From Escherichia coli (GTDB lineage: Bacteria > Pseudomonadota > Gammaproteobacteria > Enterobacterales > Enterobacteriaceae), in the NCBI RefSeq assembly GCF_044324875.1, contig NZ_CP172185.1: a stretch of 64,000 bases of DNA. One strand, given 5' to 3'. Under the pieces are notes generated by a model. It was not told the origin of the DNA and did not search any database. It saw only the letters and a program-made list of their open reading frames with translations. Shown here piece by piece: positions 1-54,484 of the stretch (its first letter is position 1; the number at the start of each line of letters is the position of its first letter). A program made the position numbers and the translations under genes.

Positions 1-407
1 TCGGCGTGCCGCACAGTGACGTGACGACCGGTAAGCGACGTCACGAAGCCTACCTGGCGTTCTGCAAAGCGCATAAACTGCATCCCGTTGCCGCCCTGCC
101 AGGCCTTGCTATGAAGCAAGGCTATGAGAACGTAGCAAAAGTGATTACGCCTGAAACTACCGCCTTACTGTGCGCAACCGACACGCTGGCACTTGGTGCA
201 AGTAAATACCTGCAAGAGCAACGCATCGACACCTTGCAACTGGCGAGCGTCGGTAATACACCGTTAATGAAATTCCTCCATCCGGAGATCGTCACCGTAG
301 ATCCCGGTTACGCCGAAGCTGGACGCCAGGCGGCCTGCCAGTTGATCGCGCAGGTAACCGGGCGCAGCGAACCGCAACAAATCATCATCCCCGCCACCCT
401 GTCCTGA
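1..407 (+). CDS. treR: Trehalose operon repressor TreR, C-terminal part (5' end outside window)
   Basis: Open frame from window edge to TGA at 405-407; translated tail ...VGNTPLMKFLHPEIVTVDPGYAEAGRQAACQLIAQVTGRSEPQQIIIPATLS matches LacI-family sugar-binding domain of TreR; sits directly upstream of treB-treC. Confidence 0.9.
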   Translation, partial: GVPHSDVTTGKRRHEAYLAFCKAHKLHPVAALPGLAMKQGYENVAKVITPETTALLCATDTLALGASKYLQEQRIDTLQLASVGNTPLMKFLHPEIVTVDPGYAEAGRQAACQLIAQVTGRSEPQQIIIPATLS

Positions 408-459
408 TCGTTTCCTGAACGATAAATTGTGATCTTCGCTGCGTTTCGGGAACGTTCCC
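407..459 (+). promoter_or_regulatory. Putative TreR operators in treB promoter region (two palindromes: ATCGTTTCCTGAACGAT at 407-423 and GGGAACGTTCCC at 448-459)
   Basis: Two near-perfect inverted repeats read directly in the treR-treB spacer; LacI-family repressors bind such palindromes. Assignment to TreR is inference. Confidence 0.4.
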
Positions 460-525
460 GTTTTTAAATTTTTCCGCGCAATATATTCTGCAGCCAACCA
501 AAAATGTCATCTGCCATGGGGCTTT

Positions 526-1947
526 ATGATGAGCAAAATAAACCAAACGGATATCGATCGGTTGATTGAACTGGTCGGCGGGCGCGGCAATATTGCGACG
601 GTGAGCCACTGTATTACTCGTCTGCGCTTTGTCCTCAACCAACCGGCCAATGCCAGACCGAAAGAAATTGAGCAACTCCCCATGGTGAAAGGCTGTTTCA
701 CCAATGCCGGGCAATTTCAGGTGGTGATTGGCACCAACGTGGGTGATTACTATCAAGCACTGATAGCGTCAACCGGACAGGCGCAGGTTGATAAAGAGCA
801 GGTAAAAAAAGCCGCCCGGCAGAATATGAAATGGCATGAGCAGTTGATCTCTCATTTCGCGGAGATCTTCTTCCCGTTGCTGCCCGCGCTGATTAGCGGC
901 GGTTTGATCCTCGGTTTTCGCAATGTGATCGGCGATTTGCCCATGAGCAACGGTCAGACGCTGGCGCAAATGTACCCTTCCCTGCAAACGATCTACGATT
1001 TTCTGTGGTTGATCGGTGAAGCGATTTTCTTCTACCTGCCGGTCGGGATTTGCTGGTCAGCGGTGAAAAAAATGGGCGGCACGCCGATCCTTGGTATCGT
1101 GCTTGGCGTAACGCTGGTTTCTCCACAGCTGATGAACGCTTATCTGCTCGGGCAGCAGCTGCCGGAAGTGTGGGACTTTGGCATGTTCAGCATCGCCAAA
1201 GTGGGCTATCAGGCGCAGGTGATCCCGGCACTGTTAGCCGGGCTGGCGCTGGGCGTTATTGAAACTCGTCTTAAGCGCATCGTGCCGGATTACCTCTATC
1301 TGGTGGTGGTGCCCGTCTGTTCGCTGATCCTCGCGGTGTTCCTCGCCCATGCGCTGATTGGTCCGTTTGGTCGCATGATTGGCGATGGCGTTGCCTTTGC
1401 GGTACGTCACCTGATGACCGGCAGCTTTGCTCCGATTGGCGCGGCATTGTTTGGCTTCCTGTACGCCCCGCTGGTGATCACCGGCGTACACCAGACCACG
1501 CTTGCTATTGATTTGCAGATGATTCAAAGCATGGGTGGCACGCCAGTGTGGCCGCTGATTGCACTGTCGAATATCGCTCAGGGCTCCGCCGTGATAGGTA
1601 TTATCATTTCCAGCCGCAAGCACAATGAACGCGAGATCTCCGTGCCTGCCGCTATCTCCGCCTGGCTTGGAGTCACTGAGCCTGCTATGTACGGCATCAA
1701 CCTGAAATATCGCTTCCCGATGCTGTGCGCGATGATTGGTTCTGGTCTGGCAGGATTGCTATGCGGCCTGAACGGCGTTATGGCGAATGGCATCGGCGTA
1801 GGCGGCCTGCCGGGAATTCTCTCGATTCAACCGAGCTACTGGCAGGTGTTTGCGCTGGCAATGGCTATCGCCATCATCATCCCGATTGTACTCACCTCGT
1901 TTATCTATCAGCGGAAATACCGCCTGGGCACGCTGGACATTGTTTAA
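526..1947 (+). CDS. treB: PTS trehalose-specific EIIBC component
   Basis: 473-aa ORF, N-terminus MMSKINQTDIDRLIELVGGRGNIATVSHCITRLRF (EIIB Cys motif) followed by polytopic membrane domain; followed by treC. Confidence 0.97.
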   Translation: MMSKINQTDIDRLIELVGGRGNIATVSHCITRLRFVLNQPANARPKEIEQLPMVKGCFTNAGQFQVVIGTNVGDYYQALIASTGQAQVDKEQVKKAARQNMKWHEQLISHFAEIFFPLLPALISGGLILGFRNVIGDLPMSNGQTLAQMYPSLQTIYDFLWLIGEAIFFYLPVGICWSAVKKMGGTPILGIVLGVTLVSPQLMNAYLLGQQLPEVWDFGMFSIAKVGYQAQVIPALLAGLALGVIETRLKRIVPDYLYLVVVPVCSLILAVFLAHALIGPFGRMIGDGVAFAVRHLMTGSFAPIGAALFGFLYAPLVITGVHQTTLAIDLQMIQSMGGTPVWPLIALSNIAQGSAVIGIIISSRKHNEREISVPAAISAWLGVTEPAMYGINLKYRFPMLCAMIGSGLAGLLCGLNGVMANGIGVGGLPGILSIQPSYWQVFALAMAIAIIIPIVLTSFIYQRKYRLGTLDIV

Positions 1948-1996: not shown

Positions 1997-3652
1997 ATGA
2001 CTCATCTTCCCCACTGGTGGCAAAACGGCGTTATCTACCAGATTTATCCAAAGAGTTTTCAGGACACCACGGGTAGCGGCACCGGCGATTTACGTGGCGT
2101 TATCCAACGCCTGGACTATCTGCATAAACTGGGCGTTGATGCCATCTGGCTAACCCCCTTTTATGTCTCTCCCCAGGTCGATAACGGTTACGACGTAGCG
2201 AATTATACGGCGATTGATCCCACCTATGGCACGCTGGACGATTTTGACGAACTGGTGACGCAGGCAAAATCTCGCGGGATTCGTATCATTCTCGATATGG
2301 TGTTTAACCATACCTCTACCCAACATGCCTGGTTTCGCGAGGCGCTGAACAAAGAAAGCCCTTACCGCCAGTTTTATATCTGGCGCGATGGCGAACCAGA
2401 AACGCCACCGAACAACTGGCGTTCAAAATTTGGCGGTAGTGCGTGGCGCTGGCATGCGGAAAGCGAACAGTACTATTTGCATCTCTTTGCACCAGAACAG
2501 GCGGATCTCAACTGGGAGAATCCAGCGGTACGCGCAGAGCTGAAAAAAGTCTGTGAGTTCTGGGCCGATCGTGGGGTCGACGGGTTGCGGCTGGATGTGG
2601 TGAATCTGATCTCCAAAGATCCGCGTTACCCTGAAGACCTGGATGGCGACGGGCGTCGCTTCTACACCGACGGGCCACGAGCACACGAGTTTTTGCACGA
2701 GATGAACCGCGATGTGTTTACGCCACGCGGGTTAATGACCGTAGGTGAAATGTCCTCCACCAGCCTTGAGCATTGCCAGCGATACGCGGCTCTGACAGGC
2801 AGTGAATTGTCGATGACCTTTAATTTTCATCACCTGAAGGTCGATTATCCCGGTGGTGAGAAATGGACGCTGGCTAAACCTGACTTTGTGGCGTTGAAAA
2901 CATTGTTCCGCCACTGGCAACAAGGAATGCACAACGTGGCATGGAATGCCTTGTTCTGGTGTAACCACGATCAGCCGCGCATTGTTTCTCGCTTTGGTGA
3001 TGAAGGTGAATACCGCGTGCCTGCGGCAAAAATGCTGGCGATGGTGCTGCATGGCATGCAGGGAACGCCGTATATCTACCAGGGCGAAGAGATTGGCATG
3101 ACCAACCCGCATTTCACGCGCATTACTGACTATCGCGACGTGGAGAGCCTCAATATGTTTGCCGAGCTGCGCAACGATGGTCGTGATGCCGACGAGTTAT
3201 TGGCAATCCTCGCCAGTAAATCCCGTGACAACAGTCGCACCCCCATGCAATGGAGCAACGGCGATAATGCCGGGTTTACGGCTGGCGAACCGTGGATTAG
3301 CCTGGGCGATAACTATCAGGAAATCAACGTAGAAGCTGCGCTGACCGATGAGTCCTCGGTGTTTTACACCTACCAAAAGTTAATCGCACTGCGTAAGCAA
3401 GAAGCCGTCCTGACATGGGGCGATTACCAGGATCTGCTGCCAAACAGCCCTGTATTGTGGTGCTATCGCCGTGAATGGAAGGGGCAAACCTTGTTGGTCA
3501 TTGCCAACCTTAGCCGTGAGACCCAACCCTGGCAGCCAGGGAAAATGCTCGGCAACTGGCAGCTTGTGATGCATAACTACGAAGAAGCCTCACCACAACC
3601 CTGTGCCATGACTTTACGGCCTTTTGAGGCTGTCTGGTGGTTACAGAAGTAA
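1997..3652 (+). CDS. treC: Trehalose-6-phosphate hydrolase
   Basis: 551-aa product starting MTHLPHWWQNGVIYQIYPKSF (GH13 alpha-amylase family); ATG at 1997 inside longer ORF-track call 1850..3652. Confidence 0.96.
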   Translation: MTHLPHWWQNGVIYQIYPKSFQDTTGSGTGDLRGVIQRLDYLHKLGVDAIWLTPFYVSPQVDNGYDVANYTAIDPTYGTLDDFDELVTQAKSRGIRIILDMVFNHTSTQHAWFREALNKESPYRQFYIWRDGEPETPPNNWRSKFGGSAWRWHAESEQYYLHLFAPEQADLNWENPAVRAELKKVCEFWADRGVDGLRLDVVNLISKDPRYPEDLDGDGRRFYTDGPRAHEFLHEMNRDVFTPRGLMTVGEMSSTSLEHCQRYAALTGSELSMTFNFHHLKVDYPGGEKWTLAKPDFVALKTLFRHWQQGMHNVAWNALFWCNHDQPRIVSRFGDEGEYRVPAAKMLAMVLHGMQGTPYIYQGEEIGMTNPHFTRITDYRDVESLNMFAELRNDGRDADELLAILASKSRDNSRTPMQWSNGDNAGFTAGEPWISLGDNYQEINVEAALTDESSVFYTYQKLIALRKQEAVLTWGDYQDLLPNSPVLWCYRREWKGQTLLVIANLSRETQPWQPGKMLGNWQLVMHNYEEASPQPCAMTLRPFEAVWWLQK

Positions 3653-35421: not shown

Positions 35422-36906
35422 TCAGTCATTCAGTGGAAATAATTCATTGTTGTAACTGGTGTACTCACCTTCAACGGTAAGCAAACTGCCGTTTTTATCA
35501 AGATGCGCCGCATCGAGTTGTCGAGTCTCATTACGCCGCTTCGCATCACGTACCAGTCCATCGCCTACGTAATAAATATAGTGGTCATCATGAGCAAAGG
35601 TATCTGATAATTGACCATTGGCGTATTTAAACCACGTCCATTGGCCTTTCAGTTCAAAATGCTCAACCGTGTCTTCATCAATAAAATACGTATAGCGATC
35701 GTCATGTGCTAAATAATTTAATGGTGTGCCATCGGGGCTTTTATACCACTGCCATTGCCCATTAATATCAAAAATAGTCACATCATCGCTCGCAATGAAA
35801 TAAACTTTATCCCCTACAATATTAACACCTTCCTGTAATTCTTGTTGCGGGTCTGGTAAATGAATGACCGACAGCGTTTTTTCGACCGCAGAAACATACT
35901 TCACCAGATAGAGCGAATCTTTATATTGCGCCACATTCTCCGTCAGCGGGCGAAAATATTCCGGATCAACATCAGGAATAGTCGCAACCCGGCAGTCATT
36001 AGCACGCCTGGAAGCATCACGCGTCAACCATGTTACTTTATCCCGCTGCAGGTCAAACGTACTCCGACAATTTTTACCGAACGCATAACGTTTCTCCCCG
36101 TCTTTATCGCGATAAATTAGCAGTGAACCGGCTATCCAGCGCACAATATGAAAGGTATCCGGATCGGCGTTGATGGCATCTCCATTCACAAAGACCTGTG
36201 ATTTAGTCCGCCAGATTGTATCCCAGGGTCCCGGATTACTTTTGCTTTGGCAGCTATTGGGGGAAAATAAAATAATTCGTCGGTCCCAGGATTTAACGCC
36301 AAGAATAGAATACCCTTGCGCACTGCCCAACCAGTGCCCCTGAAAGTAAATATTGTGACGATCTTTCAGCACATCCGCGGAATCACCTGAACCGCCGACT
36401 TGTTGCAACGAATCCATATCGACCTGCTTTTCGTCGCGATTATCATCCGTGCGTTCACCATCAAAATAGAGACTATCTTTATCGGCGGCAAAACGCCCCC
36501 ACGCGCGGAATGTTGCAACATCAACTTTCGGTGTTCCCGGCGGGTTCTGGACTATTTTCCCTGCCCATAAAATATGGCGGCCATCGGTTAACCAGTCGAA
36601 ACGCCAGCCGCCATTTGACCGATAGCCAGAGAAGGGAGCCACCCGCACAAAATCATTATTGATATCATCAGGTGAATCGTATTCACCATCAGTGCCGTTG
36701 GGTACGCGGCGAAGTTGTTTGAACTTTACCTGCGGCAAATGAATATCCGGAAAATCGATACCGTAACCGTCACTATCTTCAACGATATATTTTGTGCCTT
36801 GCCCCCACGGCTGGTAGTAAAACGCAGCATAAGGCACGCCGGAGCAGGCTATCGAAGCGGTTGAAAATAAAGCCAGTGCGAGACAAACGGGTTTAATTGG
36901 CAACAT
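35422..36906 (-). CDS. Secreted hypothetical protein with DKNYY-like repeats (paralog A), 494 aa
   Basis: Long ORF with AGGA RBS 9 nt upstream of ATG 36904-36906; N-terminal signal peptide MLPIKPVCLALALFSTASIAC; repeated D-K-x-x-Y-F/Y motifs (ADKDSLYFDG, KDRHNIYFQG, RDKDGEKRYAFG, YKDSLYLVKY, GDKVYFIASDD) and two C-terminal ~34-aa repeats (GQWQWYK...AHDDRYTYF / GQWTWFK...AHDDHYIYY). Family assignment is by motif eye-match only. Confidence 0.8.
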   Translation of the reverse strand: MLPIKPVCLALALFSTASIACSGVPYAAFYYQPWGQGTKYIVEDSDGYGIDFPDIHLPQVKFKQLRRVPNGTDGEYDSPDDINNDFVRVAPFSGYRSNGGWRFDWLTDGRHILWAGKIVQNPPGTPKVDVATFRAWGRFAADKDSLYFDGERTDDNRDEKQVDMDSLQQVGGSGDSADVLKDRHNIYFQGHWLGSAQGYSILGVKSWDRRIILFSPNSCQSKSNPGPWDTIWRTKSQVFVNGDAINADPDTFHIVRWIAGSLLIYRDKDGEKRYAFGKNCRSTFDLQRDKVTWLTRDASRRANDCRVATIPDVDPEYFRPLTENVAQYKDSLYLVKYVSAVEKTLSVIHLPDPQQELQEGVNIVGDKVYFIASDDVTIFDINGQWQWYKSPDGTPLNYLAHDDRYTYFIDEDTVEHFELKGQWTWFKYANGQLSDTFAHDDHYIYYVGDGLVRDAKRRNETRQLDAAHLDKNGSLLTVEGEYTSYNNELFPLND

Positions 36907-36939: not shown

Positions 36940-38103
36940 TTATTTAAATAAGGGTTTCAGACCGCTCGGGGGTTGCTTCACCGTAGACCATTCTGCTGAA
37001 ATGGGGTTGTAACGCAGCCATTCAGTTTGCTCGTAGTGTTTTCCGTCGATTGTGGTTAATCCACTAAGTTCGTGACTGTAGAGTTGCCCGTCTGTAGTGA
37101 TATACATGTAGCCAGTTACCATGCTTTCCCTATCTAATAATTCAAAAACATCCTCTGGCTTGGGTGTTATCAGTTCACCTTCACCTAATGCATTGGTTTT
37201 AACCTTATAGAATTGATCTTTGTAATAGCCTACCGACCCGGTAAGTAAGGTAAAATATTCCGGATCAACTCCTTTAAGCGTTTCATAAACACAATCACTG
37301 CCCGCAGGCGTCGCTTCTTGTTTGAGCCTGGACACATTCTTCAAACCGATATTAAATAACGCACAACTGTGACCAATATCTTCCAACGTATAGTCATGCT
37401 CGCCGCTTTTATCGCGATAAACTAACCGTTCGCCAGGCATCCAGCGGATTATCTGAAAGGTTTTGCGATCGGCGGGCAGCGGCTTGCCATTAACAATCAC
37501 CTGCGAATTTGTCATTACAACAAATTGCAGGGATGAATCATGCCGCAGGATTTGAAACCCGTCAGCGCTGCCCAACCAGTGCCCCTTATGCCAAAGACTA
37601 TTTTTATCACGCAGTAAATTCCAGATGTCCGTCTCTTCAAGCGTTGACATATCCACCTGCTTATCACCGCTATTATCATCGGTACGCTGGCCGTCAAAAT
37701 AGATACTGCGTTTATCAGCAGCGAAAGCGCCGAATGCCTTAAAACTGGCGGCATCGACATTAGGTTCACCGGATGGATTTTTCAGGACTTTGCCTGCCCA
37801 AAGGACAGAACGTCCATCGGTGAGCCAGGTATGCTGGCAATCCCCCTCGTCATCACAGTCGAACTTATCGGGATTAAAATCGGAGAGCAGCCGGGTTTCT
37901 TGTTTATTGGCTAAATTGGCAATGCGCCAGAGGCGGGAAAAATTAACGTCTGGTAATTCGGAGAGGATCTCATCTTCTTTTCCCTTCTGTTCGGCAACGT
38001 AAACCGTGCCTTTTTCATGCTGGCGGTAATAAAAATCCGCGCCCCAGGAAGGTGAAATGGAGAGAGGTAATGCGGCGATTAATAACCAACTGCGCTTAAC
38101 CAT
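36940..38103 (-). CDS. Secreted hypothetical protein with DKNYY-like repeats (paralog B), ~387 aa
   Basis: ORF track 36940..38331; I place the start at ATG 38101-38103 where a signal peptide begins (MVKRSWLLIAALPLSISPSWGA), avoiding overlap with cycA; colinear with paralog A (WLTDGRSVLWAGKVLKNPSGEPNVDAASFKAFGAFAADKRSIYFDGQRTDDNSGDKQVDM vs WLTDGRHILWAGKIVQNPPGTPKVDVATFRAWGRFAADKDSLYFDGERTDDNRDEKQVDM). Confidence 0.75.
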   Translation of the reverse strand: MVKRSWLLIAALPLSISPSWGADFYYRQHEKGTVYVAEQKGKEDEILSELPDVNFSRLWRIANLANKQETRLLSDFNPDKFDCDDEGDCQHTWLTDGRSVLWAGKVLKNPSGEPNVDAASFKAFGAFAADKRSIYFDGQRTDDNSGDKQVDMSTLEETDIWNLLRDKNSLWHKGHWLGSADGFQILRHDSSLQFVVMTNSQVIVNGKPLPADRKTFQIIRWMPGERLVYRDKSGEHDYTLEDIGHSCALFNIGLKNVSRLKQEATPAGSDCVYETLKGVDPEYFTLLTGSVGYYKDQFYKVKTNALGEGELITPKPEDVFELLDRESMVTGYMYITTDGQLYSHELSGLTTIDGKHYEQTEWLRYNPISAEWSTVKQPPSGLKPLFK

Positions 38104-54303: not shown

Positions 54304-54484
54304 CTGTCTCTCCTTTTTGTCTGGTATGACATGAAGAAATCCTTAGCACAAGTTTCTGCTGGCGGTATTAGTTCATAATGTTGAGATGTGGGTTACGCTT
54401 TCATCACGTTTTCATTCGAAAATCGCGTACCAGGTAACAATTCGGGAACATTCCCCCAAAGTTAAATTAATAAGGCACTACACT

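Follow-up and report, generated by a model that had tools for sequence, protein, structure and literature searches.

The spacer between treR and treB of Escherichia coli contains two palindromes, and the question raised by this locus is whether both of them serve as operators of the trehalose repressor TreR, as the original prediction proposed, or only one of them does. We have analysed them within a window of 64,000 nucleotides (RefSeq contig NZ_CP172185.1), which is the whole stretch of DNA to which all positions below refer. The second palindrome, which in this strain spans 447-460, is the already known TreR operator of treBC, while the first one (407-423) is an element without demonstrated role. 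We consider it likely that the operator belongs to a single module made of a CRP site, the operator itself, a -35 element and a -10 element, and that the first palindrome stands outside this module. The TreR operator and the control of treBC by CRP and trehalose-6-phosphate are long-established E. coli biology, and recovering them once more matters little. What has been added here is a comparative map, in which the CRP site, the operator, the -35 and the -10 keep the same mutual spacing across 80 enterobacterial species and form one module, and in which the eye-catching upstream palindrome falls outside this fixed-spacing module.

The window opens inside treR, which encodes a LacI-family repressor; its 3' part lies at 3-407 on the plus strand and ends with the stop TGA at 405-407. 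This fragment matches the NCBIfam profile TIGR02405 of TreR (E = 1.9e-66) at profile positions 179-311 of 311, i.e., the C-terminal 133 residues, and also matches TreR in PDB entry 4xxh. The regulated gene treB (526-1947, plus strand; NF008236, E = 1.2e-293) encodes the PTS trehalose transporter subunit IIBC, and treC (1997-3652, plus strand; TIGR02403 and NF008183, as well as the K-12 annotation), encoding trehalose-6-phosphate hydrolase, comes second in the operon. Over its first 1,200 bases, the window is 100% identical to many E. coli chromosomes, where treR and treB are annotated in RefSeq, and the treR-treB spacer of 118 nt is identical in the window and in K-12 MG1655. By calculation, 447-460 of the window corresponds to 4,466,246-4,466,259 of NC_000913.3, and 407-423 to 4,466,283-4,466,299. 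With treB starting at 526, the two palindromes lie 119 to 67 nt upstream of it, in agreement with the predicted 65-120 bp.

The second palindrome was checked in the sequence, and GGGAACGTTCCC is indeed found at 448-459. In the strain of the window it grows by one base on each side, giving the perfect 14-mer CGGGAACGTTCCCG (447-460), with arms 447-453 and 454-460 that are 100% complementary and have 0 nt between them. The 14-mer is thus of even length, with the central CG at 453/454 and the centre at 453.5. This is the form of LacI-family sites, which, according to Ravcheev et al. 2014 (PMC4052901), are even palindromes with a central CG and in most cases precede the start codon by 30-140 nt; here the centre is 72 nt upstream of the treB ATG, and treR ends 40 nt upstream of the operator.

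Symmetry alone, on the other hand, is no evidence, since the perfect 12-mer palindromes in the whole window number 18, compared with 18.3 +/- 4.1 after dinucleotide shuffling. When the 118-nt spacer is shuffled, 2.4% of the sequences contain a perfect 12-mer and 0.6% a 14-mer. The second palindrome is therefore mildly improbable at its place, and it is conservation, not symmetry, that lifts it far above chance. The outer C/G pair that completes the 14-mer is strain-specific, and most genera and some Escherichia have an A at position 460.

For the conservation analysis, a TreB scan with one genome per species gave 80 Enterobacteriaceae loci with a TreB identity of 86% to 97%, from Escherichia, Citrobacter, Klebsiella, Raoultella, Enterobacter, Kosakonia, Kluyvera, Buttiauxella and other genera. 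In all of them (80/80), GGGAACGTTCCC occurs with 0 mismatches and as the sole copy within 400 nt upstream of treB. We have further derived an ungapped profile of 102 columns from the 80 distinct sequences, anchored on the operator core. Of its columns, 23 are invariant, namely 428-434 (TGTGATC), the core at 448-459, TT at 461-462, A485 and T489, while T484 is conserved at 90% or more. All 80 sequences have the CRP half-site, the operator and the -10 at constant mutual distances, including the 18 bp from the centre of the CRP site to that of the operator, whereas between 67 and 209 nt separate the operator from the treB ATG. It is thus the promoter, and not the gene start, to which the position of the operator is tied.

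The protein side is equally constant. TreR residues 10-31 (IARLSGVGKSTVSRVLNNESGV), including the recognition helix, are invariant in the 76 loci where the N-terminus is present, and the whole protein is 79-99% identical. A specific protein-DNA pair predicts just this combination of an invariant reading head and an invariant 12-mer. In addition, no second positionally conserved TreR-like site is present from the 3' end of treR through the spacer to the 5' end of treB. The conservation in relatives that was to be expected of both palindromes is thus seen for 448-459, and is lacking for 407-423, which is absent outside Escherichia and Citrobacter. Within the species, queries of 33 nt against 5,419 genomes show that the stretches of both palindromes vary alike, with at least one difference in 492 versus 401, counted per stretch and not by position; within-species polymorphism therefore does not discriminate between the two.

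The comparison with the published operator points to the same element. The supplement of Camas et al. 2010 (PMC2978694, supplement file 6), which is a computational listing, names cgtttCGGGAACGTTCCCGttttt as the only operator of treR in E. coli K-12, and the second palindrome is this site: sequence, genome position and neighbouring genes are the same, and we see no difference. In the same work, regulators of other species whose recognition helix is likewise KSTVSR share this motif, [T/C]G[G/A]GAACGTTCCC[A/G]. In our full-text literature search, no operator position was found in the main text of a paper, and this supplement alone gave it. A RegPrecise-based entry for TreR in Enterobacteriales (PMC4052901) reads 12/8/8, which appears to mean one site per regulon if the columns carry the meaning we assume. 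According to PMC3938415, treBC is activated without glucose and is repressed by TreR without trehalose-6-phosphate; both this paper and a 2025 preprint (bioRxiv 10.1101/2025.04.02.646877) credit Horlacher & Boos 1997 (J Biol Chem 272:13026) with the binding of purified TreR and its release by trehalose-6-phosphate, and the preprint also cites trehalose as an anti-inducer. Finally, treB is a known CRP target that was recovered by genomic SELEX as well (PMC3105977). Overall, the TreR repression, the trehalose-6-phosphate induction and the CRP dependence in our picture are derived from the literature.

The surroundings of the operator suggest how it could be embedded in the promoter. Directly upstream lies a CRP-like site of 22 bp, AATTGTGATCTTCGCTGCGTTT (425-446, centre 435.5), which we regard as the putative CRP site in this exact extent. 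It has one strong half-site, the invariant TGTGATC at 428-434, while its second half, CTGCG, matches TCACA at 1/5 positions of the class I form (TGTGA-N6-TCACA, 22 bp). The promoter scan called no consensus sigma-70 promoter, as is expected if the promoter is activator-dependent, and the promoter was derived from conservation instead. The putative -35 hexamer TTTTTA (461-466, plus strand), with T461 and T462 invariant, abuts the operator and lies 17 bp upstream of the putative -10 hexamer TATTCT (484-489, plus strand), in which T484 is conserved in at least 90% and A485 and T489 are invariant. With these hexamers, treB transcription would start near A496/A497, which would centre the CRP site near -61.5 and the operator near -43.5. 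The CRP site (425-446), the operator (447-460), a weak -35, a 17-bp spacer and the -10 (484-489) can thus be read as one compact, rigid module of fixed geometry.

In class I CRP promoters, the -35 is bound by sigma region 4, and the DNA next to CRP on its downstream side, around -43, is where the alpha C-terminal domain of RNA polymerase docks (Busby & Ebright 1999). The operator of treBC fills the interval just downstream of the CRP site and abuts both neighbours, so its occupancy should prevent polymerase recruitment. If TreR follows the usual mode of its family, a dimer would read the two GGGAAC half-sites, with its hinge helices placed over the central CG. Bound between CRP and the -35, at about -43.5, TreR would then fill the DNA needed by the alpha C-terminal domain and by sigma region 4, and this presumed steric step would block productive recruitment of polymerase even with cAMP-CRP bound, keeping treBC off. 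Trehalose-6-phosphate, the product of transport by TreB, releases TreR. The footprint of TreR described by Horlacher and Boos in 1997 is said to be located directly upstream of the -35.

Compared with known systems, the second palindrome is like the LacI/GalR operators lacO, purO and galO (PMC4052901), being even, with a central CG, and located beside the gene of its regulator. The first palindrome is unlike them, since its 17 nt make it odd, its arms are 5 nt apart and a C stands at its centre. The CytR/CRP and LacI/CRP arrangements (class I promoters with CRP at -61.5) offer a further parallel: there, too, a LacI-family repressor sits directly beside CRP, at the stretch where the alpha C-terminal domain docks. 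For TreR, however, we see no evidence of a direct repressor-CRP contact of the CytR type, and the treBC operator is upstream of the -35 whereas lac O1 is downstream of the start site.

Several loci deviate from the common layout. In Trabulsiella odontotermitis, a second perfect GGGAACGTTCCC occurs at 543-554 of the locus, about 1.9 kb upstream, before treR. About 70 nt downstream of it follow 36 codons left from a treB 5' end (622-730, beginning MLKINQQDIDKLIELVGGRENIATVSHCITRLR), so that this extra copy does not represent an independent operator but stems from a partial duplication of the treB promoter together with the 5' end of the gene. In Enterobacter asburiae, E. cloacae and E. quasihormaechei, treB does not have treR as its immediate upstream neighbour; about 1.8 kb lie between the end of treR and treB in the latter two species, and treR is absent from the flank in the first. 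The CRP half-site and the operator are intact in all three, which implies an insertion between treR and the treB promoter in these lineages. In loci L005, L007, L011, L036, L060, L065, L069, L074, L076 and L078, the operator is separated from the treB ATG by 114-209 nt, compared with 67-92 nt in most others, which indicates that inserts have lengthened the 5' untranslated region in L036 and in some species of Citrobacter and Kluyvera. Locus L036 is labelled Chryseobacterium, although its sequence is Enterobacter-like, and probably comes from a mislabelled or contaminated assembly.

A further deviation was observed within E. coli. In strain HB101 (NZ_CP184671.1), an IS1A element is located between treR and treB at 1733-2500, corresponding to 442-450 of the window. 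It sits in the left arm of the operator, and the 9-bp target duplication CGTTTCGGG restores an intact operator beside the promoter. The CRP half-site is displaced by about 0.8 kb, and the insertion predicts an altered CRP dependence of treBC in this strain.

The idea of TreR regulating its own gene through a site upstream of treR was also examined and rejected, since there is no conserved match there, and the best ones have 3-6 mismatches at scattered positions.

As for the first palindrome, ATCGTT-TCCTG-AACGAT (407-423), it is present in the sequence as predicted, and it overlaps the treR stop TGA (405-407) by one base, the A with which it opens. It fills the gap between this stop and the CRP 22-mer. 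The two arms of 6 nt are 100% complementary and are separated by a spacer of 5 nt, which gives a total of 17 nt centred on C415, without the even length and the central CG of a LacI-family site. An inverted repeat of 6+6 nt with a loop of 3-8 nt is found in 11% of the spacer shuffles, and hence the first palindrome is not statistically notable alone. Furthermore, the pattern ATCGTT-N5-AACGAT does not occur elsewhere in the window, which gives no sign of a wider motif. Among the 80 loci, columns 407-423 are poorly conserved, and the palindrome is recognisable in Escherichia and Citrobacter only.

Within this clade, the palindrome may not be entirely free to vary. In 12 sequences of Escherichia and Citrobacter, 88% of the cells are paired, compared with 18-61% for slid partners, and two pairs have changed on both sides (T-A to C-G and C-G to T-A). 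In strain N50, the loop is altered and the arms are kept, while in one Escherichia lineage the right arm is broken by a G-to-T change (AACTAT). The covariation and the kept arms may give a weak hint of some constraint within the clade, although the covariation amounts to about two events in 12 closely related sequences and can be produced by relatedness alone. Most likely, what we see in the gap at 407-423 is neutral or peculiar to the clade, and lies outside the conserved module. There is a small likelihood that the first palindrome is a functional addition of Escherichia and Citrobacter, either as a weak auxiliary operator, which would cooperate across the CRP site with the main operator some 40 bp off, or as a stem-loop at the 3' end of treR; if this were true, the control of treBC in E. 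coli would have a layer that other enterobacteria lack.

The first of these two forms is the closest to the original prediction. It says that both palindromes bind TreR, with 447-460 as the main operator and 407-423, or the overlapping 404-415, as a weak auxiliary one in Escherichia and Citrobacter that would raise the local TreR concentration or allow looping. According to PMC3505978, RegulonDB gives two TreR sites at treBC, and a LacI/TreR chimera (LLhT) behaves as if it were able to loop DNA; besides, some regulators elsewhere with the same recognition helix have two predicted operators (PMC2978694). The best match to the TreR core that overlaps the first palindrome, CTGATCGTTTCC at 404-415, agrees at 8/12 positions, including a good right half (GTTTCC), and the arms are largely kept within the clade. 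However, 8/12 is at chance level, with an expectation of 1.95 such matches per 700 nt, and this match falls to 6/12 in Citrobacter. The site is absent in other genera despite an identical TreR head and an identical main operator, and the palindrome itself is odd, has no central CG, and is broken in the right arm in the Escherichia lineage mentioned above. In addition, Camas et al. 2010 give one E. coli site, and the RegPrecise-based table appears to give one per genome. We thus regard this two-operator explanation as unlikely, and if the first palindrome did bind TreR, it would be a minor lineage-specific refinement. In sum, the proposal of two TreR operators is supported for the second palindrome, by its form, its place adjoining treR, its presence in 80/80 loci at a fixed distance from the promoter elements and its listing by Camas et al. 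2010, and is not supported for the first, whose geometry, 8/12 match and restriction to one clade speak against it.

The second form places the first palindrome at the RNA level, possibly as a small stem-loop at the 3' end of the treR mRNA in Escherichia and Citrobacter that stabilises this mRNA or terminates weakly before the treB promoter. As RNA, the palindrome folds into a 7-bp hairpin of -5 kcal/mol (z = -2.4 versus dinucleotide shuffles), and the changes on both sides of the stem described above would fit such a role. Leclercia and Silvania carry unrelated stronger hairpins at the same place (-9.7 and -10 kcal/mol), followed by TTTATT. On the other hand, in the 77 loci with an adjacent treR, no conserved hairpin was found between the treR stop and the CRP site, as the mean z is -0.01 and only 3% of the loci are below -2. 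The E. coli stem does not have the make-up of an intrinsic terminator either: it contains 2 G-C pairs and is followed by AAATTG, with no T-tract, and it was not called in the terminator scan. An Rfam search of 300-700 returned no RNA family at E <= 1. We judge the stem-loop to be quite improbable, and a gap feature outside the module stays our preferred reading of the first palindrome.

It is highly improbable that the 14-mer and the TTTTTAAATTTTT behind it serve, either instead of or besides an operator function, as an intrinsic terminator of treR that shields treB from read-through: although it is the sole terminator-like site in 300-700 (a 5-bp stem with 4 G-C pairs and a T-run), has conserved T461-T464, and is sensibly placed between a repressor gene and the promoter it represses, its folding is modest (-7 kcal/mol, z = -0.86, with 35/200 shuffles folding equally well), the A at position 460 in most genera shortens the stem to 4 bp, the conserved T's are accounted for by the -35 hexamer, the same motif stands before, not after, genes in other species (PMC2978694), and all 12 core positions, including 4 loop bases, are invariant with no compensatory change in 80 species, which argues for protein recognition and not for a hairpin.

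Apart from the treR-treB spacer, two further elements were observed in the window. The 14-mer palindrome TTTATCGCGATAAA occurs twice, at 36103-36116 and 37408-37421, 1.3 kb apart, at matching positions of two adjacent minus-strand ORFs (494 and 463 aa). As the surrounding DNA shows about 65% identity, the two copies reflect tandem paralogous genes, not a regulatory site. The other element, GGGAACATTCCC at 54444-54455, is one mismatch away from the TreR core (central CG to CA) and is situated between yjfP and bsmA, with the likely start of bsmA some tens of nt downstream of it. About 0.1-0.3 matches of this type are expected by chance in 64 kb, and this one is seen in E. coli. Read on the other strand, it is GGGAATGTTCCC, which is the core form given as an operator for TreR-class regulators of other species in the supplement of Camas et al. 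2010.
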